In this document: positions 1-9,795 of the stretch, in pieces | How the letters are laid out: each line of letters starts with the position of its first letter | Position numbering within the stretch: position 1 is the first letter of the stretch | From: Calditrichia bacterium | GTDB taxonomy: Bacteria > Calditrichota > Calditrichia > RBG-13-44-9 | Length of the DNA: 10,110 bases | Reading direction: 5' to 3' | Assembly (NCBI GenBank): GCA_037381445.1 | Contig: JARRQT010000192.1 | Location: forward strand, 1 to 10,110 | Notes under the pieces: generated by a model | What the model saw: only the letters and a program-made list of their open reading frames with translations | Databases searched by the model: none | Told to the model about the DNA's origin: nothing | Translations under genes and position numbers: made by a program

Positions 1-613
1 AACCCCAAGCATCGCCTTCGCTGAAGGGATTACCTGGCCCGAATGGAAATATTTGGTGCATACCACCAGAATTTATTCCGTCGCCGATTTTCTGGATGAT
101 CCGCTGGATCCCCGCCATGGATACAAGGGTCAGTTCGATTATGAAAAAACGCTGGACATGCTCGATCAGCAGGACAGTTTTGACAAACTTTATTTGAAGC
201 AGAGCTTTTATGGACAGATATTTCCGAAAACAACCACCGGCATGCATCTCTTTCTGGGATTGGGAAGGAATTTGCCGGTTTACCGGTATTTTTATCTGGG
301 AGGGCCGGACAGTTTTGTCGGCATGAATTATGACGAATTTTTCGGACCGAATGTCGCAATATACGGCATTGACAACAAAATACGACTGAACAACAGATTT
401 TCACTGCTGGCGATTTTCAATGGCGGAAATCTGTGGGACGATTACCAGAATTTCGATCTGACAAAAAACAGATACACCGGCTACGGAGGAGGAATTCAGA
501 TCAATACCATCGCCGGCCCTTTCCGGTTCATCATCGGGCACAGCGGCGGAATAACCTATCAGTATTTTACCCTGGGTTTCAGCTTGTCCACCCGTATGGA
601 TGAGCGCTATTAG
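1..613 (+). CDS. C-terminal part (5'-truncated by the window) of an Omp85/BamA-TamA family outer-membrane beta-barrel protein, plausibly a patatin-POTRA-barrel (PlpD-like) protein
   Basis: The frame is open from position 2 (TPSIAFAEGITWPEWKYLVHTT...) to TAG at 611-613, so the TTG start at 53 is not the true start. Omp85-type motifs: DFLDDPLDPRHG, FYLGGPDSFVG (loop-6-like), GYGGGIQINTIAGPFRF and terminal strand YQYFTLGF. Alternating amphipathic strands. Confidence 0.75.
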   Translation, partial: TPSIAFAEGITWPEWKYLVHTTRIYSVADFLDDPLDPRHGYKGQFDYEKTLDMLDQQDSFDKLYLKQSFYGQIFPKTTTGMHLFLGLGRNLPVYRYFYLGGPDSFVGMNYDEFFGPNVAIYGIDNKIRLNNRFSLLAIFNGGNLWDDYQNFDLTKNRYTGYGGGIQINTIAGPFRFIIGHSGGITYQYFTLGFSLSTRMDERY

Positions 614-655: not shown

Positions 656-1618
656 TTACCAATCACCCTGCGGACCGCCATAAGCGCCCATATCATTCCG
701 CGTCCCATCGGCATCCTGAAAAGCGGCGTCCGGATTCCCGGCATCAATACACGGAGAACCAGGCAAAAGGTGAAGATCCTTTTCCGATCTGAACCGGGGA
801 CTCATATCCCCGAATGCAAGAAAATTGTAATCCCTTGCACAATGCGAAGAATCTCCCATTGCCAGTGTAATCCCGGGATTGCCAGTGTTTGCGGAATTTC
901 CATAGAAAATGTTGTTCTGCACTTCACCGCCGGCAGGATTCAGAACAACAAGCCCGCCGCCGTAATTTTCACAGCGGTTGTTATAAAATGTATTGTTCAC
1001 TATGTCCGCAGAGGATTCTGTTGAAAGCAACGCTCCGCCGATACTGACTGCTGTGTTGCCCTCAAAAATGGAGTTGGCAATTGTGGCTTCTGAATGCTGA
1101 AGTATCAATCCGCCGCCATTAACGGCAGCATTATTTCTGAAAATGCAGTTTTGCACGGTCAGGGAAGAACTTTCCACATTAACGGCGCCGGCATCCTCAG
1201 TTGACATATCCTGCCAATCCGCATTCTCAACGATGCAGAATTGCAGGAGCGAGTTCCGGCGGGAGCCTACAAATTTGATCCCCCTCCAGTGCTCATCCGG
1301 CCCTGTGAAGGTAATCATATTGTCCGGCTGCCCTTCAGCAACCAATTCTCCGCGGACTTCCAGTCTGGCGCTGTCAGCAAAGACCAGTTTAACACCAGCT
1401 TCGATGGTCAGTGTTTTATCGGATTCGACCAGCAAATCCCCGGTGACATAGTAAGGAGAATGTATTGCCGAGAGCGTGCCGAATATACTGCCTGAAATGA
1501 GTGTGGATGATTCCGTTGAGAGTGTTCCGGGAGATGTGACGCCCGGATTTTTTTCCCGATCGCTGCAATGAAAACACAGTAGGGAAAGTGATAATAAAAA
1601 AACAATTCTGTAAAACAT
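656..1618 (-). CDS. Right-handed parallel beta-helix repeat protein (pectin-lyase-like fold), probable lipoprotein
   Basis: 320 aa. N-terminal hydrophobic signal ending in Cys (MFYRIVFLLSLSLLCFHC) followed by an S/T/P/G-rich linker. Contains SPYYVTGDLLV..LTIEAGV, repeated NCIFRNN/NSIFEGN/NNTFYNN..GGG beta-helix turns, and a C-terminal LHLLPGSPCIDAG...DMGAYGG motif common in this class. Confidence 0.8.
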   Translation of the reverse strand: MFYRIVFLLSLSLLCFHCSDREKNPGVTSPGTLSTESSTLISGSIFGTLSAIHSPYYVTGDLLVESDKTLTIEAGVKLVFADSARLEVRGELVAEGQPDNMITFTGPDEHWRGIKFVGSRRNSLLQFCIVENADWQDMSTEDAGAVNVESSSLTVQNCIFRNNAAVNGGGLILQHSEATIANSIFEGNTAVSIGGALLSTESSADIVNNTFYNNRCENYGGGLVVLNPAGGEVQNNIFYGNSANTGNPGITLAMGDSSHCARDYNFLAFGDMSPRFRSEKDLHLLPGSPCIDAGNPDAAFQDADGTRNDMGAYGGPQGDW

Positions 1619-1733: not shown

Positions 1734-2510
1734 TCAAATTTGTCTTTCCTCAGGACCGTCATATTCTGCTTTAGCAAAATCAATCTTCCGCATTGGTTTG
1801 TACCGATTTTTTTCCTCAAAGATATGCGCCACCAATCCGGGCAAGCGGGCCATAATAAAAAATGCATTCGCCAGTTCACTGGGAATGTTCAGCTCGCACA
1901 GTACCGCGGCAATCGCCCCGTCCACGTTGATGGGCAGGTCCTTTCCCCCTATTTTTAGAAGCGCACTCTGGATGGCCTTGCTCATTTCAATAAATTTTCC
2001 GGAAATGCCGTGCTCTTTGGCCAAGGCAAAAAGCTTTGTTGTGCGGGGATCATTGGTATGGACCCTGTGACCATAGCCCATGATTTTTTGCCTATTATCG
2101 AGATATTGCCGGACCAGTTTCTCGGCAGCTTGCTCCACATGGAGTTTTTCCCGGTTCATTAAATCCACGCCCTCTATCAGGGTCTGCATGCTTTTTTCGA
2201 TCGCCCCGCCGTGATATTCATTAATCGACAAAATCCCGGCCGAAATCGCGGCGTTCAACGGCGCACCGGTGCTGGCGGAAGTAATTGCCGCCTGGCAGGA
2301 TGGCGGCGTCACGCCGTGATCGACGCTGGAAACCAGCACCGCCTCCAGAATTTTGCCTACGTTCCGGGTGGGCAGCTCGCCGGTGATAAGCAGATAGATC
2401 ATTTGGGGATAAGAGAAATTCCCCATCAGTTGATCCAGCATATAACCGCGGACCACTATTTTGTTGGGCTCGATTTTGGTTATGGCAGTTTTCCAGGAAT
2501 CTGAGGTCAT
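1734..2510 (-). CDS. ccl: Citryl-CoA lyase (short citrate-synthase-family protein)
   Basis: 258 aa, much shorter than citrate synthase. N-terminal WKTAIT..I.VRGY, then GELP, VDHG..PPS, HGGA, GYGHRVH, DPR, LPINVDG and MAR..GLVAH..EE. Size and motifs match stand-alone CCL and the C-terminal module of ATP-citrate lyase. SD-like GGAGA at 2518-2522. Confidence 0.88.
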   Translation of the reverse strand: MTSDSWKTAITKIEPNKIVVRGYMLDQLMGNFSYPQMIYLLITGELPTRNVGKILEAVLVSSVDHGVTPPSCQAAITSASTGAPLNAAISAGILSINEYHGGAIEKSMQTLIEGVDLMNREKLHVEQAAEKLVRQYLDNRQKIMGYGHRVHTNDPRTTKLFALAKEHGISGKFIEMSKAIQSALLKIGGKDLPINVDGAIAAVLCELNIPSELANAFFIMARLPGLVAHIFEEKNRYKPMRKIDFAKAEYDGPEERQI

Positions 2511-2536
2511 AGCCTTATCTCCGTTTTTGGAATAGT

Positions 2537-3439
2537 TTAATTTAATTTTTTCAAAACTTCAAGCGTCACTTTGGGAATATCCTGAAATTCTTCCACTACA
2601 TGTGCACCCACCTCCCGCAATCTGTTTACTTTCCCCTCATAGGTGCCGCGGTTTCCTTCAATAATAGCGCCGGCGTGTGAAAACCGGGTTCCTTTTTGCG
2701 CAGCGCGCCCGCCGATATAGGCGACCAGCGGCTTTGTGACGATACCTTTTTCGATCAGATCGGCCACGCTTTCTTCCTGGGAAGTGCCGATTTCTCCGAA
2801 CATGACAACCACTTTGGTGTCCGGGTCTTCCTGGAACAATTTAACGATTTCCGGATGGGGAAGCCCCACTATGGCGTCTCCTCCCACATGGACGATGCTG
2901 CTGAGACCGACACCCTGCTTACTCAGATAATATGCCAGGGAAGAGGTCATGCCGCCGGAACGGGATGTCACCCCCACCGGGCCTGGCCGGAACCACTCCC
3001 GAGCAGACTTTGCGCGGCCTCCCATCATTCCCAGCACGCCTTTCCCGGGACTCAGAAGTCCAAGCGTATTGGGGCCGACAAAACCGGCGCCCAACTTTTT
3101 CGCATAATGGTGCACCTCCAGCACATCGTAAATGGGTACACGGTCCGGCACCAGCACCGCCAGTTTTATGCCCGCATCGAACGCTTCCAGCGCGGCATTC
3201 TTTACCAGCGGGGCGGGCACGAAAATGACCGACACATCAATGGGACCCAATTTTTCCAGCGCTTCTTCCACAGTATCGAAAACCGGCAGACCGTAGACAT
3301 CCTGCCCGCCTCTTCCGGGCGTCACGCCGCCCAATACCCTGGTTCCGTAATCCATCATCAATTTGGTGCGGGTCATTCCTTCCCGACCCGTAATGCCCTG
3401 CACGATTACTTTTTTATTTTCATCAATTAATATCGCCAT
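2537..3439 (-). CDS. Succinyl-CoA-synthetase-alpha-like CoA-ligase subunit (SucD-like; probable citryl-CoA synthetase small subunit)
   Basis: 300 aa. CoA-binding Rossmann VIVQGITGREG, GGVTPG, SVIFVPAP, GPNTLG, SRSGGM, VGGD, GEIG and phospho-His motif RFSHAGA. SD AGGAG at 3446-3450. Confidence 0.88.
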   Translation of the reverse strand: MAILIDENKKVIVQGITGREGMTRTKLMMDYGTRVLGGVTPGRGGQDVYGLPVFDTVEEALEKLGPIDVSVIFVPAPLVKNAALEAFDAGIKLAVLVPDRVPIYDVLEVHHYAKKLGAGFVGPNTLGLLSPGKGVLGMMGGRAKSAREWFRPGPVGVTSRSGGMTSSLAYYLSKQGVGLSSIVHVGGDAIVGLPHPEIVKLFQEDPDTKVVVMFGEIGTSQEESVADLIEKGIVTKPLVAYIGGRAAQKGTRFSHAGAIIEGNRGTYEGKVNRLREVGAHVVEEFQDIPKVTLEVLKKLN

Positions 3440-3459
3440 GATTCTCTCCTTTCACCTGA

Positions 3460-4701
3460 TTACGCTTTCGAATGACCAATTTTTTCCCGGTATCCATCAA
3501 GGCCTTCAATGGGAAGACTGACATGACCGCCTTTGTTGCCATGGAACCAACATTCAACTTCGCAGGCCAGACATTCGGTGCATTTTCCTTTTTTGGCCTC
3601 CTCCCGCGTAATATTCAAAACCGGTTTTCCTTCTTCCAGCTTCAGAATCTGCGGGACGCATTTGGAAACACACACCTTGCTCTCGCATTTCAGGCACAGA
3701 TCGTGGTCATACGTAATCTCACCGGTCAGCGTATCAAATGAATAAAGGTTTTTGGAAAACTCCGGGATCCGGGGCCTGGGGATATCCTTTATTTTCGAAT
3801 TTTTCACCAGCGTATCGAACCGTTCGGCACAAAATTCCACCGAATCATCTTTTTTGTATCCTTCCACCGGCGCGGGCAGGTCTTTGGTGTATTCGGTCAG
3901 AATCCGGACCGCCAAGTCTTCTGAATTTCCGCCCAGGCGAATGACTACGGGGATGTCGACCCATTCTTCCCGAAACGCCTTTACCAGACCGCGGGCGGAA
4001 TGAAACTGTTCCTGTGAAGCCACACCGGAGCCGGACCCGAAATAGCCGATGATATTTTTCTGTGATAGAATAATTTTTGCGGCGCGGTACACCTTTGAAG
4101 CGGGCGGATTTCCCGAGGTGTCGCAGAAATTGGCGATTTTGTATCCCTTCCGCTGCACCGCATCCATGCTCATCATGGAACCGCCGCCGCCAGCCCCGTG
4201 GAATCCCACATATTCATCCGCTTTGCCGAATCCATGCGCCATTTGTATAAAATAAAATGTCCCGCGGTAATCATTCTTCTCCACATCGTAGGCAATTCTG
4301 TCCAACTCGCTGGGCGGACGATTCAGCTCCCTGGCAATTTTGATTCCCAGCTCCGGATGACGGTATACGGCATAGTCATCCACGGTAATCCGGCAATCGG
4401 CAGCCAGAAATTCACCGCTTTTGGTTCTGACAATGGGATTGATTTCCGCAGAGCGGGCATCATATTTCCGGGCGGTCTCCCAAAGGTTCACCATCATGTC
4501 CGCAATTTTTACCAGTCCCTTCCCCTGGATGCCTGCTTTGCGCAGCATGTTGCGCGCCTGGTAATCTCTGAATCCTTCCACAATATCAATGGTATGGAAA
4601 CTGACTTTGTCGGGATGCTCTTTTACGATTTCCTCCACGCCGGTGCCGCCAATGGCGCTGAAAATGAGCACCGGGGCCGCTTCACCGTCGCTGATAATCG
4701 T
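3460..4701 (-). CDS. Main (C-terminal) fragment of the SCS-beta-like subunit: remainder of the ATP-grasp, ligase domain and dicluster ferredoxin domain
   Basis: GGTGVEE, EINP, ADCR, GAGGGGS, NFCDTSGNP and VIRLGG, followed by CLKCESKVCVSKC and CTECLACEVEC. The ORF track starts it at GTG 4671, but homology extends about 10 codons further upstream. Confidence 0.8.
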   Translation of the reverse strand, partial: TIISDGEAAPVLIFSAIGGTGVEEIVKEHPDKVSFHTIDIVEGFRDYQARNMLRKAGIQGKGLVKIADMMVNLWETARKYDARSAEINPIVRTKSGEFLAADCRITVDDYAVYRHPELGIKIARELNRPPSELDRIAYDVEKNDYRGTFYFIQMAHGFGKADEYVGFHGAGGGGSMMSMDAVQRKGYKIANFCDTSGNPPASKVYRAAKIILSQKNIIGYFGSGSGVASQEQFHSARGLVKAFREEWVDIPVVIRLGGNSEDLAVRILTEYTKDLPAPVEGYKKDDSVEFCAERFDTLVKNSKIKDIPRPRIPEFSKNLYSFDTLTGEITYDHDLCLKCESKVCVSKCVPQILKLEEGKPVLNITREEAKKGKCTECLACEVECWFHGNKGGHVSLPIEGLDGYREKIGHSKA

Positions 4702-4945
4702 TTACCTCGCGGCCAAACAGCTCACCAGCTTTTTCTTCGGCTTCTTCAGGATTAGCGGCAAACTGGATCAGTCCCTGGCTGAAACGGCCGGTGGTCCAGG
4801 TTTGGGCTTTCAGAACTACTTCGGTGCCGAATTCTTCGGCGATCTTCCAGACTTCCTGCGGTGAGGAAGCGACACGTCCCTCCGGAACGGGAATTCCGCT
4901 TTCCTTTAAAAGTGCTTTCCCCTGATATTCGTGTAATCGTGCCAT
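4682..4945 (-). CDS. N-terminal fragment of the SCS-beta-like ATP-grasp subunit
   Basis: MARLHEYQGKALLKESGIPVPEGRVA...VVLKAQ...GR...EEAEEKAGELFG is the typical SucC/ACL-type ATP-grasp N-terminus. Good SD. The last ~6 codons (NDYQRR) are out-of-frame read-through past the junction. Confidence 0.8.
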   Translation of the reverse strand: MARLHEYQGKALLKESGIPVPEGRVASSPQEVWKIAEEFGTEVVLKAQTWTTGRFSQGLIQFAANPEEAEEKAGELFGREVNDYQRR

Positions 4946-5275
4946 GACAACTCCTGTGGATTTGACTTCTCTATTTTATATTATCAAAATCATTCACTGC
5001 GCCGTCCGGGTAATGGAACGTATCGGAACAAAATGAAGGACAAGCGGCAATTTTGAACCGATGGAATTTTGGGTTTCATCATATTTCTATCGCCAAAGTG
5101 GTCAGCAAATTAAAATTGTAACAAGACAACACGCAATAGAAATTTTATTTTGGATCTTGCCAGAACTGTTCTCCCAAAATACCAATCAGATTCCGGCAGC
5201 CTTCGATCAATCAAATCATCAAATTCCCGTAAATCGGGGAACCAGAAAATTTCCTGAAGTTATCAAATTTTAGGC

Positions 5276-5363: not shown

Positions 5364-6353
5364 ATGCTATTTATTGACAACCGGGATGTTACCGATCCGC
5401 GAATGAACCTGGCGCTGGAGGAATTCGCGCTGCGGAATTTGAGAACAGATGAGGACTGCCTTCTTTTTTACATCAATGAACCATCCGTGATTATCGGCAG
5501 ACACCAGAACACGCTGGAAGAAATCAACCTGGATTACATCAAGGCTCATTCCATCCAGGTGGTGCGGCGGATTTCCGGCGGCGGGGCGGTTTATCATGAT
5601 TTGGGAAATCTCAATTTCAGTTTTATCACCCGCTTTGATAAAACCCATTTCAATAATTATACAAAATTCACCGCACCTGTGATAAGAGCCCTGAACAAAC
5701 TGGGCGTTCCCGCCGAATTAAACGGCCGGAACGATATTGTCGCGGGCGAACGAAAAATCTCGGGCAACGCACAGTTCACTTCCAAAAACCGCATGTTCAG
5801 CCACGGCACTCTGCTTTTCGATTCCAACCTGGAAGACGTGGTCGCCTCGCTTAAAGTGAAGAAGGGGAAATTCGAATCCAAGGGCATAAAATCGGTACGT
5901 AGCCGGGTGGCTAACATTACCGAGTTTTTGGATAAAAAAATTGACATCCTGGAGTTCAGGCAGGTTCTTCTCGAAAACATTTTTGAGGGAACGCAGGACA
6001 TCCCGCGTTACAATTTCTCGGATGTTGAGCTGCAGCAAATAGAAAGCCTGGCAAAAACCAAATACGGGAGCTGGGACTGGAATTTCGGGGAATCGCCCAA
6101 GTTCAACGTCAAGAATGCCCATCGTTTTCCGTTCGGTGAAATTGAAGTCCGGATACTGGTGGACAAAGGACTCATTCAAAACATTAAATTTTACGGGGAT
6201 TTTTTTGCGCAGCGCGATATCGGGGAGCTGGAAATACTTCTCACCAATATCCGCTATGAGAGAGAAGATATTGATGAGGCAATCCGGAACAGCGACTTAA
6301 CCCAGTATTTTGGTCTGATTACGCCGTCGGAATTTCTCGATCTGCTTTATTGA
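5364..6353 (+). CDS. lplA: Lipoate-protein ligase A (LplA/LplJ type, with C-terminal domain)
   Basis: 329 aa. NLALEE, N.PSVIIGRHQN, RRISGGGAVYHDLGNLNFS, GRND, KISGNAQ, HGTLLFD, SKGIKSVRSRVANI, SWDWNFGESPKF and FYGDFF. SD-like AAGGA at 5351-5355. Confidence 0.95.
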   Translation: MLFIDNRDVTDPRMNLALEEFALRNLRTDEDCLLFYINEPSVIIGRHQNTLEEINLDYIKAHSIQVVRRISGGGAVYHDLGNLNFSFITRFDKTHFNNYTKFTAPVIRALNKLGVPAELNGRNDIVAGERKISGNAQFTSKNRMFSHGTLLFDSNLEDVVASLKVKKGKFESKGIKSVRSRVANITEFLDKKIDILEFRQVLLENIFEGTQDIPRYNFSDVELQQIESLAKTKYGSWDWNFGESPKFNVKNAHRFPFGEIEVRILVDKGLIQNIKFYGDFFAQRDIGELEILLTNIRYEREDIDEAIRNSDLTQYFGLITPSEFLDLLY

Positions 6354-7609
6354 ATCAGGGACAGATCCCTGCGGAAGGAAATCTGTTTTTCCCTCAATTT
6401 CTCTCGCATTTCAACCATATTCAGGGACAACCTGCGCCCAGTTTTCCACCAGTTGGTACATATTCCGCCCTTGCCATAGCTTTCCAGTGTGTCGACGGTT
6501 CTGTAATCCAGCGGCGTGGGGTTCGCCTCCTCAAGCTCGGTCCCGGACAGAGGGATGAAGTAATGAACATGGATCCGTGCCCCATATTGAACCGCCAGCC
6601 TTTTGATGAATATCAGCGATTCCCAGCGGTCATCCCGGTTCTCGCCGGGAAATCCGAAGATAAAATCCACCAGCGGTATGAGGCCCCTGCGATGCGTCAA
6701 TTCGCAGGCATTTTCGACATCCTCACAGGAATGCCCCCGGCGCATGGCGTGCAGCACCCGGTCGCTTCCAGACTGGGCCCCAATGGTCACTTTTTTATTG
6801 CTGCAATATTTGACGATCAAATCCACGAAGGCTTCACTGAAGGAATTGGGGCGGGCCTCGGAAGGGAAAATGCCGTATTCCAGGTGCTCCGTTCCGTTCA
6901 CCCTGCAATATTCAAGCATCTCGCGGACTGCATCGTAATTCAACTGGCGGGCGTTTCTCGCTCCGTATTCAAAAGCAGAGGGACAGACAAAATTGACCCT
7001 GCGGTGGTGATTTCGCTGTTTGAGCAGACTGTGATAAATCTTAACCGAATCCAGAGAGCGCTGGATGGCCTTCTGGCACGACGTCTGGCAAAATTTGCAG
7101 TTCCAGTTGCAGCCCCGGGTAATTTCCAACGGCGGCGAGGTCCTGACATGTCGGGATAACGGGAAATATTCATCGAGCGTCACCGCATCCGGGGCGTGGA
7201 GAAGAGCCGGACTATCCGGCAAATCACCTCTCAGGTAACTGCGAATAAATGCGCTGAAACCGGTTTCTGCAGGTCCGGCATAGGCATAATCGAATCCCAT
7301 CTTCAATGCAGATTCGGGATTTCCTGTAGCATGTGGTCCGCCTGCCAGCAGTATGAGTGAGGCGGGTGATTCCGCGCGTATCCATTCGACTTCCGTCATC
7401 ACCTGCGGCAAATGGGGCGTCATGAATGAATAAAGCAGGACACCTTCCGGTCCGGATTTCACGAACTGCTGAAGAGAATGAAAGCTGTCCAAAAAAATGA
7501 TCCGAAAATACCGGTCCAGTCCTTCTTTTTCCAGCAGGCTCAGCAGTAGGGGAAAGGTAAAGCGGTTTCCCTTCTGCAGGCGAATTGCTAAATATCTGAC
7601 GGGGGCCAT
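6347..7609 (-). CDS. B12-binding domain / radical SAM protein (resembles TIGR04013, MJ_1487 family)
   Basis: 420 aa. N-terminal B12-binding-like domain (LYSFMT, LAGGPHATG.P, GFDY..GPAE), EITRGCNWNCKFCQT (CxxxCxxC), FPSEARP, IGAQSGSDRVL..RGH, VDFIFGFPGE and ARIHVHYFIPLSGT. Its 3' end overlaps the lplA 3' end by 7 nt (convergent). Confidence 0.88.
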   Translation of the reverse strand: MAPVRYLAIRLQKGNRFTFPLLLSLLEKEGLDRYFRIIFLDSFHSLQQFVKSGPEGVLLYSFMTPHLPQVMTEVEWIRAESPASLILLAGGPHATGNPESALKMGFDYAYAGPAETGFSAFIRSYLRGDLPDSPALLHAPDAVTLDEYFPLSRHVRTSPPLEITRGCNWNCKFCQTSCQKAIQRSLDSVKIYHSLLKQRNHHRRVNFVCPSAFEYGARNARQLNYDAVREMLEYCRVNGTEHLEYGIFPSEARPNSFSEAFVDLIVKYCSNKKVTIGAQSGSDRVLHAMRRGHSCEDVENACELTHRRGLIPLVDFIFGFPGENRDDRWESLIFIKRLAVQYGARIHVHYFIPLSGTELEEANPTPLDYRTVDTLESYGKGGICTNWWKTGRRLSLNMVEMREKLREKQISFRRDLSLIQ

Positions 7610-9051: not shown

Positions 9052-9795
9052 TTAATCTTCATCCTCAAAAGAGAACATTCCGAAGCGTCTTTCCTTTAAA
9101 GCGCGAATTCTTTCTTTGAAATAGCCCCGGTTATCCACCTGATCATACCATTTCACCCGCAAATATTGATTCCGCTCGAACCATTCATACTGAATTCCGC
9201 CACCGAATTCCTGACGGAACCGTTTGCCGATATCCAAAGCCAGCCGGGTTGTATTCGCGAAGATAAAAAGAATTCCCTTCTTTTCGACCACATCAATGAT
9301 TTTCTCAAAGGGCATGGCATCTTCCAAATCCCGTTCAATCTGTTTGGCCTGGGCAACAAATTCCTCTTTGCGGTCTGCCAGCTTCTTGTCATAAATTTCC
9401 ACACTGCCTACAAAATTCTCAAAGGTCTTGCCCACACACTTGGGACAATATGCCAGTTCCGTCCGCACCGTGAACATATCGGTAATATTATCCTTTACCC
9501 ATTTTTTATTTATATAAATCTTCCGGCATCTGGGACAAACATAAACTATCTTGGATTTGGGCAGAATGGAAGATTCTATCGCAGAAATGGCGACATCTTC
9601 GCCTTTAGCGAGTTTCTTTTCTATTTTTTCTAATTCGTCGATATCCTCATCTTCATTCTCTTCATCGTCCGAGACTTCCTCGTCTTCCGCTTCCTGGGAT
9701 TCTTCCTCCGTCTCTTCATCTTCTTCGAAATCATCATCCTCATATGGGAAAGCATCATCATTTTCGGTATCGTCAAATTTTTTGAAAAATGACAT
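9052..9795 (-). CDS. BCAM0308-family / NMD3-like zinc-finger protein with acidic N-terminal extension
   Basis: 247 aa. CPRC..IY...KW and CPKC...G.VEI, then P.EKII, LA..IG..F...FGG..Y.W and LRVKW, the pattern I recognise from BCAM0308-type proteins. SD AGGAGG at 9802-9807. Confidence 0.72.
   Translation of the reverse strand: MSFFKKFDDTENDDAFPYEDDDFEEDEETEEESQEAEDEEVSDDEENEDEDIDELEKIEKKLAKGEDVAISAIESSILPKSKIVYVCPRCRKIYINKKWVKDNITDMFTVRTELAYCPKCVGKTFENFVGSVEIYDKKLADRKEEFVAQAKQIERDLEDAMPFEKIIDVVEKKGILFIFANTTRLALDIGKRFRQEFGGGIQYEWFERNQYLRVKWYDQVDNRGYFKERIRALKERRFGMFSFEDED

Follow-up and report, generated by a model that had tools for sequence, protein, structure and literature searches.

A candidate two-step citrate-cleavage operon with a ferredoxin-tailed CoA ligase in a Calditrichia bacterium

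The citryl-CoA synthetase (CCS) of Hydrogenobacter thermophilus, CcsA/CcsB, and its citryl-CoA lyase, Ccl (structures 6HXQ and 6HXP), are made from separate genes as a large and a small subunit resembling succinyl-CoA synthetase (SCS) and a short lyase, and a 2026 survey (PMC13147460) places this pair of enzymes in Aquificaceae and Leptospirillum. ATP-citrate lyase (ACL), represented by AclB/AclA of Chlorobium (6HXJ) and by human ACLY, contains the same modules in the order beta, alpha, lyase, with alpha and lyase fused in AclA. SCS itself, SucC/SucD, has been solved from Thermus (3UFX) and Aeropyrum (2YV2). In citrate lyase, CitDEF, the citryl thioester is made by the CoA-transferase CitF. 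Here, we describe an operon of an uncultured Calditrichia bacterium (assembly GCA_037381445.1), carried by positions 1-10,110 of contig JARRQT010000192.1, hereafter the window, in which three consecutive genes encode an SCS-like large subunit (beta) with a ferredoxin-like tail, an SCS-like small subunit (alpha) and a short lyase. As in CcsAB/Ccl, the two subunits and the lyase are separate proteins; in contrast to that system, their genes make up a single operon, and the gene order is the module order of ACL. We read the operon as an unfused ATP-citrate-lyase-like system that cleaves citrate in two steps, and give this reading a probability of about one half. The beta/alpha ADP-forming CoA ligase would convert citrate, with ATP and CoA, into citryl-CoA, from which the 258-aa lyase would release acetyl-CoA and oxaloacetate. 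Such a system would serve catabolism or anaplerosis in an anaerobic heterotroph, for instance by supplying acetyl-CoA from citrate or from reductively carboxylated 2-oxoglutarate.

Parts of the operon and their closest relatives

The lyase is a close relative of Hydrogenobacter citryl-CoA lyase and has kept all eight active-site residues of citrate synthase (CS). Its residues 52-241 match positions 167-355 of the 357-position Pfam profile Citrate_synt, that is, only the C-terminal catalytic part of the fold, and it passes the NCBIfam model NF004866 'citryl-CoA lyase' (280.7 bits, cut-off 245). Among solved structures the best match is H. thermophilus Ccl (6hxp_A, E 2e-54, 188 bits), whereas no CS exceeds 77 bits. 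All 32 aligned family members, drawn from several phyla, have the residues H65, H100, H148, R156, D197, F218, R222 and R241. By phmmer offsets to Escherichia coli CS (4g6b) they correspond to H229, H264, H305, R314, D362, F383, R387 and R407, the eight residues tabulated for CS in the survey cited above (PMC13147460). The DHGxxPPS stretch is the same as in proven citryl-CoA lyase. An earlier reading of the window made from the letters alone, hereafter the sequence-only reading, had expected automatic annotation to name the operon sucCD plus citrate synthase. This holds for beta, whose homologues, where public records name them, are labelled as succinyl-CoA synthetase beta, as acetate-CoA ligase family or as ATP-grasp protein, and it fails for the lyase, which reaches a citryl-CoA lyase model.

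According to Pfam and NCBIfam profiles, the two ligase subunits are SCS-like, with an ATP-grasp large subunit and a CoA-binding small subunit, and they share with SucC/SucD the fold and the highest overall similarity in sequence and structure. Nevertheless, this ligase is neither canonical SucCD nor the succinyl-CoA synthetase of the organism. The two fragments in which beta is read in the window (see below) score 66 and 144 bits on the SucC model (cut-off 370), and alpha scores 302 bits on the SucD model (cut-off 336). A canonical sucCD pair (599 and 465 bits) lies on another contig of the same genome (C104), adjoining korABG, which encodes subunits of a 2-oxoacid:ferredoxin oxidoreductase. 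The possibility that the subunits are simply canonical SucCD, named as a refuting condition of the sequence-only reading, is countered by both results, the sub-cut-off scores and the separate pair. The lyase as operon partner is a further difference from SucC/SucD. When the substrate domain was searched alone, it was found to share with CcsA (6hxq_B) three features that are absent from SCS, namely an RPPxE...DxRG insertion, GGGGS and GNPPAxKxY..KIILS. The last of these stands where SCS has its GGGA loop, and the FGGI loop of SCS is likewise replaced. The Pfam Citrate_bind family, a point of likeness with ACL, matches the C-terminal fragment of beta only weakly (25.1 bits, below the cut-off of 26.8).

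Beta differs from CcsA, and also from ACL, which has no iron-sulfur tail, by a C-terminal extension of about 100 aa with the motif CX2CX4CX3C, 25-26 residues, CX2CX2CX3C. The ferredoxin-like tail that had been proposed for beta is indeed there: the eight-Cys motif occupies residues 326-374 of the C-terminal fragment, and it is found in 79/79 full-length ORFs (open reading frames) of the loci described below and in 120/120 database homologues. The second spacing of the first four-Cys motif is 4 residues instead of 2. Pfam Fer4 models stay under their cut-offs, the best of them being Fer4_9 with 17.6 bits on a homologue, P0002 (cut-off 27), and the look-alikes of the tail retrieved by an Atlas search are small ferredoxins, all with scores below 0.9 and to be taken as leads only. 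In an AlphaFold model of beta (103 sequences; mean pLDDT 92.6, pTM 0.84), residues 401-510 have a pLDDT of 91-97. Foldseek alignments of this model span 343-462 of its 517 residues, one high-rmsd match to ACLY excepted, and the tail appears to lack a counterpart in the listed solved SCS, CCS and ACL chains. The eight cysteines likely bind two [4Fe-4S] clusters. Because the ligase reaction is not a redox reaction, the role of the tail is likely to be structural or one of redox or oxygen sensing.

Conservation of the operon and CitF as an alternative partner

When one genome was scanned for each species, relatives of beta with the ferredoxin-like tail turned up in at least 543 species. The best-matching 120 database proteins share 62-84% identity with the C-terminal fragment of beta, and most of them are about 515 aa long. 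Locus counts given here refer to the best 80 of the loci from these at least 543 species, nearly all of them in metagenome-assembled genomes (MAGs), which come from Calditrichia, Marinimicrobia, Anaerolineae and other Chloroflexota, Ignavibacteria, KSB1, Zixibacteria, Aminicenantes, Gemmatimonadales and other groups. In tblastn searches, every locus with at least 1.1 kb of room (73/73) has alpha after beta in the same orientation, and the lyase follows in 55 of the 60 loci with at least 2.3 kb and in 45 of the 47 with at least 4 kb; it was not found within 7 kb by tblastn in two loci (L025 and L051). In a MAG labelled Oligoflexia, alpha and lyase form a single 565-aa ORF (L085:4288-5982, plus strand), which is the architecture of AclA. 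The proposal of the sequence-only reading, an unfused ACL-like system of ligase then lyase, is therefore strengthened by the Ccl-like lyase, by co-conservation across phyla and by one AclA-like fusion. A lyase that did not accompany the ligase genes in other genomes would have refuted that reading, and this refutation fails. Unrelated genes are occasionally inserted between beta and alpha, encoding an N6/N4 DNA methylase (L023:8524-9510), a DUF3800 protein (L059:8559-9197) or a BNR/sortilin-like protein (L030:3405-5243).

Inside the phylum, distribution was surveyed in 78 genomes, each at least 80% complete. The ferredoxin-tailed beta is present in 16 of them: the genome studied here, 8 of the 15 other genomes of the family f1, 7 of the 16 of f3 and none of the remaining six families, and within one genus in three of six genomes. 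A full-length CS also occurs in 14 of the 16 carriers. From this patchy presence and the retention of CS it follows that the module is neither essential nor a substitute for citrate synthase.

If the lyase needs an activated substrate, what provides it in genomes that have the lyase and lack the ligase? In the same survey, a CitF homologue was detected in 36 of 78 genomes and the ligase in 16, and no genome has both. When the 47 genomes with a clear short lyase were cross-tabulated (a 48th short lyase, in G038, is partial and was left outside), 13 had the ligase, 33 had CitF and one had neither (G042, 88% complete). In 12 of the 13 ligase genomes the lyase is found no more than about 3 kb downstream of beta, and 23 of the 33 CitF genomes have CitF at most about 3 kb away from the lyase. 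Four CitF loci (L098-L101, from genomes G007, G035, G001 and G033) contain, in this order, genes for a TrmB-type regulator, the lyase, an HD-domain protein, an isocitrate-dehydrogenase-family protein (Iso_dh) and a PrpD-like protein, with CitF as a stand-alone, divergent gene; neither CitD nor CitE was seen in these four loci. Their lyases are 56-59% identical to that of the window. In a midpoint-rooted tree of 36 sequences, the CitF-partnered lyases form a clade nested among the ligase-partnered ones, with support of only 84/77 and 90/92 for the enclosing forks.

Because CitF makes the citryl thioester, its mutual exclusion with the ligase supports an 'activate, then cleave' sequence and is the strongest comparative support for it. 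The same logic, formation of a thioester followed by cleavage, is thus implied for CitDEF and for the sister genomes in which CitF stands in place of the ligase beside the lyase, HD, Iso_dh and PrpD genes. By contrast with CitDEF, the lyase has the citrate-synthase fold and not that of CitE, and the phylum survey found no CitF homologue in this window or its genome. A cluster of CitF and lyase would be a CoA-dependent system resembling citrate lyase, of which no description was found in the literature searched. Similarly, a full-text search of the main texts of papers turned up neither a ferredoxin-tailed CCS-like ligase nor a pairing of CitF with Ccl, and the genome paper of Caldithrix abyssi (PMC5317091) makes no mention of 'citrate', 'citryl' or 'succinyl-CoA synthetase'.

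The HD-domain protein deserves a separate comment. It has 178 aa, follows in 31 of the 40 loci with at least 6 kb of room and comes after the lyase in ligase and CitF clusters alike (L013:6897-7436 and 41 other loci; C89:9896-10411 in the genome studied here). Its usual H-D pair reads A-D (LLADVGK), while other His and Asp residues are invariant. No NCBIfam model was found for it, and among solved structures there is only a 16-bit match to YhaM. In a subgroup of Chloroflexota (L057, L064, L069, L073, L077 and L088), a UbiD-family decarboxylase comes after the lyase (5 of the 40 loci with room), and L073 encodes a nitroreductase/BluB-like protein instead of the HD, dehydratase and Iso_dh proteins.

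Substrate of the ligase and the lyase

Which acid does this pair of enzymes handle? Citrate is favoured by the Ccl-like lyase with every citrate-synthase residue, by the CcsA-type motifs of the ligase and by CitF as the alternative partner, and we infer citrate rather than homocitrate as the substrate. Several observations weigh against this interpretation. For every member of the family the activity is a prediction. Against solved structures, the scores of an intact homologue of beta are 227 bits for Thermus SCS-beta (3UFX), 134 for CcsA and 79 for AclB; those of alpha are 292 bits for Aeropyrum SCS-alpha (2yv2), 170 for CcsB (6hxq_A) and 131 for AclA; and Foldseek puts SCS-beta first (TM 0.89 by target), CcsA 15th and ACL later. 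The subunits are not specific relatives of CcsA/CcsB, their best solved matches being the SCS of Thermus and Aeropyrum. Overall, the ligase is nearer to SCS than to CcsAB, yet its substrate domain seems to carry CcsA-type motifs, and even there one loop reads GSGSGVASQEQ where CcsA has GGTANNTR. In other lineages the operon continues with genes for a homoaconitase/LeuCD-type dehydratase (Hac), a homoisocitrate-dehydrogenase-like Iso_dh and a PrpD-like protein. The substrate loop of that Iso_dh is SPIVRLR, as against S-x-N-V-A-x-R in aligned isocitrate dehydrogenases (IDHs), so that the Asn of S-x-N is missing. Finally, the genome already has citrate synthase, AcnA and NADP-IDH, and a second set of citrate-handling enzymes needs a reason, and beta is broken in the window as assembled.

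Some of these observations are what would be expected if the same two-step chemistry acted on homocitrate or on another adduct of a 2-oxo acid with acetyl-CoA, homocitryl-CoA being split into acetyl-CoA and 2-oxoglutarate. The enzymes would then belong to an undescribed 2-oxoadipate/2-oxoglutarate pathway together with homoaconitase-, PrpD- and homoisocitrate-dehydrogenase-type enzymes. We regard this as the best surviving alternative, if a somewhat unlikely one. Where 6 kb or more of sequence was available, 31 of 40 loci have a Hac, Iso_dh or PrpD-type gene downstream. The fused dehydratase passes the homoaconitase equivalog TIGR00139 (cut-off 530) with 755 bits in L052 and with 888 bits in the genome studied here (C162). 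The model that best fits the cluster Iso_dh is the homoisocitrate dehydrogenase AksF2, below its cut-off. An enzyme of the LeuA/homocitrate-synthase type was not found in the 92%-complete MAG, where PF00682 gave one weak 51-bit match; an NAD-IDH-like gene is present in addition to the canonical CS, AcnA and NADP-IDH. The caution expressed in the sequence-only reading, that the substrate might be a homologue of citrate such as homocitrate, was therefore well placed in view of the homoaconitase-, homoisocitrate-dehydrogenase- and PrpD-type partners.

On the other side, the residues that bind oxaloacetate are among the eight invariant ones of the lyase, whose DHGxxPPS stretch is that of a proven Ccl. 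We know of no citrate-synthase-fold enzyme that uses 2-oxoglutarate, and CitF, the alternative partner, is to our knowledge only a citrate CoA-transferase. Synthesis of lysine through aminoadipate is not the purpose either: the genome has LysA and DapF, LysX was not found in it, and its lysine is formed via diaminopimelate. The cluster-type Iso_dh occurs in eight of nine genomes of the family f6, all of them without lyase, ligase and CitF, and thus has a wider phyletic profile than the lyase. Moreover, the HD, Iso_dh, PrpD and dehydratase genes are not adjacent to the operon in the window or in its closest Calditrichaceae relatives. Orthologues of the genes clustered in a Caldithrix sp. are dispersed in this genome, with Iso_dh on contig C7 (74% identical), the PrpD-like gene on C62 (60%) and the HD gene on C89 (48%).

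A more speculative proposal takes in these partner genes without choosing between the two substrates, and we hold it only tentatively, as a rather unlikely view. In it, anaerobic heterotrophs would have an undescribed pathway of 'reverse 2-oxo-acid elongation', with ligase and lyase as its terminal step and with an iron-sulfur switch. 2-Oxoglutarate or 2-oxoadipate would be reductively carboxylated by the cluster Iso_dh and isomerised by the PrpD- and homoaconitase-type enzymes. The resulting citrate or homocitrate would be activated with ATP by the ligase, or by CitF, and cleaved by the citrate-synthase-fold lyase. The iron-sulfur tail would turn on the ATP-consuming step only in the reduced, anoxic state.

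State of the beta gene, direction and role in the cell

All three genes are on the minus strand of the window in the ORF listing (Table 1), with exactly 20 nt from the beta stop to the alpha ATG and exactly 26 nt from the alpha stop to the lyase ATG, where AclA has a fusion. GGAG or AGGAG precedes each of the three start codons, at 9 nt before the ATG in the case of the AGGAG of beta. Three co-oriented genes with Shine-Dalgarno sites and these spacers had been described in the sequence-only reading, and they stand; beta as a single ORF does not, since it is read in two frames, a break that the sequence-only reading does not mention. Between 1500 and 5400, sites resembling promoters and terminators do not exceed the number expected from shuffled sequences.

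Table 1. Features of the operon and of its surroundings (positions in the window).
Feature	Position	Strand	Description
Lyase	1734-2510	-	258 aa; citryl-CoA-lyase homologue, short citrate-synthase fold
Alpha (small ligase subunit, CoA-binding/phosphohistidine type)	2537-3439	-	300 aa; CoA_binding 91.3 bits, Ligase_CoA 54.7 bits
Beta, N-terminal fragment	4682-4945	-	87 aa; ATP-grasp_2 profile 1-84, 67.9 bits; three out-of-frame codons, then stop
Beta, C-terminal fragment	3460-4698 (403-aa ORF 3460-4671; frame open from 4701)	-	ATP-grasp_2 profile 121-201
Junction in beta	4696-4699		68 nt (22 codons + 2 nt) absent from the window; the 4 bases are present on both sides of the missing stretch in contigs
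Ferredoxin-like tail of beta	3463-3789	-	eight invariant Cys; motif at 3550-3696
Omp85-family protein	2-613	+	C-terminal end only, at window edge
Secreted right-handed beta-helix protein	656-1618	-	directly downstream of operon; weak NosD, pectate-lyase-like and choice-of-anchor Q matches
Lipoate-protein ligase LplA	5364-6353	+	TIGR00545, 449 bits; divergent from operon
B12-binding radical SAM protein	6347-7609	-	uncharacterised family TIGR04013 (MJ_1487), 334 bits; convergent with LplA, 7-nt overlap with its end
247-aa protein	9052-9795	-	very acidic Asp/Glu-rich N-terminus; BCAM0308-family/NMD3-like zinc-ribbon part

Is the interruption of beta real? Compared with the homologues of about 515 aa, the N-terminal fragment aligns to residues 1-84, columns 85-105 form a gap within the ATP-grasp domain, and the C-terminal fragment, in another frame, contains the remainder of that domain, the CoA-ligase (substrate) domain, a linker and the tail. 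If the 68-nt deletion were genuine, the operon could be a decaying pseudogene cluster and the system dead in this organism. We consider this improbable, even though the frameshift is present in the assembled window, the partner genes are scattered in this genome and contigs drop rare variants, so that a real deleted form could exist. Logan contigs of four public runs (X1-X4) were placed on window 4300-5050; runs X5 and X6, in which almost none of the sampled words occur, were left out. In X1, the probable source run, a 643-nt contig matches 4669-4699 with its letters 1-31 and 4696-5050 with its letters 96-450, without any mismatch on either side, and it has 64 further letters between the matched pieces, that is, 68 nt flanked by a 4-nt repeat. 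It is the only X1 contig that continues past 4699; two X1 contigs coming from the other side both end at 4698. The same 64+4-nt jump is seen in contigs of X2 (record 9) and X4 (record 19), which represent related populations, 90-99% alike, and loose contig ends of X2 and X3, when translated in frame, give the segment present at this place in the homologues. None of the contigs placed on 4300-5050 joins the sequence in the way the window does. In addition, beta has an open frame of at least 512 aa in 15/15 other genomes of the phylum that carry it, and alpha and lyase are intact and conserved (72% and 56% identical to the locus of a Caldithrix sp.). Very probably, then, the break is an assembly artefact or a minor variant, and because of this the organism is likely to possess an intact beta gene.

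The lipoate-protein ligase gene next to the operon brings up the direction of the reaction. Upstream of beta, 6 of 54 loci carry LipB and 5 carry lipoamide dehydrogenase; the nearness of LplA may reflect a weak functional link to a lipoyl-dependent 2-oxoacid dehydrogenase or be due to chance. Run backwards, the enzymes would work as an ATP-conserving citrate synthase, with acetyl-CoA and oxaloacetate giving citryl-CoA and then citrate and ATP. Such a direction has been reported for the ATP-citrate lyase of Desulfobacter postgatei. The ACL reaction is near equilibrium (-8.0 kJ/mol in a table of PMC13147460), the carriers are energy-limited anaerobes, and pyruvate-dehydrogenase-type E1, E3 and LipB are encoded near some loci, as LplA is here. 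This reversal is nonetheless quite improbable. The linkage to E1, E3 and LipB is rare (3 of 38 loci downstream, 5-6 of 54 upstream), a normal citrate synthase is kept by 14 of the 16 carriers in the phylum, and the CitF variant would have to form citrate from acetate and oxaloacetate, which should be unfavourable at cellular concentrations. Since the transferase-driven version would be useful only for cleavage at those concentrations, we infer that cleavage is also the direction of the ligase-driven one.

It is very improbable that the operon provides the citrate-cleaving step of a reductive tricarboxylic acid (rTCA) cycle for autotrophic CO2 fixation, as CcsAB/Ccl do in Aquificaceae: the lyase is homologous to Ccl and a check for rTCA markers did find genes of the pyruvate:ferredoxin (PFOR) and 2-oxoglutarate:ferredoxin (OGOR) oxidoreductase types in the genome, but many anaerobic heterotrophs have such oxidoreductases, the module is unevenly distributed even inside one genus, an ATP-independent CitF replaces the ligase in sister lineages, and the module is carried by Calditrichia, Anaerolineae, Marinimicrobia, Ignavibacteria, Aminicenantes and similar groups, heterotroph-type lineages that contrast with the Aquificaceae and Leptospirillum hosts of CcsAB/Ccl. 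In line with this, a 2026 survey (bioRxiv 10.64898/2026.09.02.748891) dropped ccl as a marker because its detections far outnumber those of ccsAB. The warning in the sequence-only reading that citrate catabolism is as plausible as carbon fixation is borne out: given the patchy distribution in heterotrophs, the retention of citrate synthase and the replacement by CitF, autotrophy gains no support, and the role is probably non-autotrophic.

The cleavage of citrate in two steps by an SCS-like ligase and a Ccl-like lyase, as we read this operon, would have consequences beyond the Calditrichia. The family, found in at least 543 species of mostly uncultured, heterotroph-type lineages, has a large subunit that is mislabelled as succinyl-CoA synthetase. 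Because the predicted reaction is cleavage of citrate, or of a homologue, in a heterotroph, the operon is predicted to be no marker of CO2 fixation, and genome surveys that use ccsA, ccsB and ccl or 'citryl-CoA lyase' matches as rTCA markers would obtain false positives from it. Should the substrate prove to be homocitrate, no earlier enzyme with the citrate-synthase fold would have been known to act on 2-oxoglutarate. That one lyase is paired either with an ATP-dependent ligase or with CitF is a natural experiment that relates ATP-citrate lyase, citrate lyase and citrate synthase. Finally, an iron-sulfur domain on a CoA ligase that performs no redox chemistry could be a new way to tie central carbon flux to the redox state of the cell.

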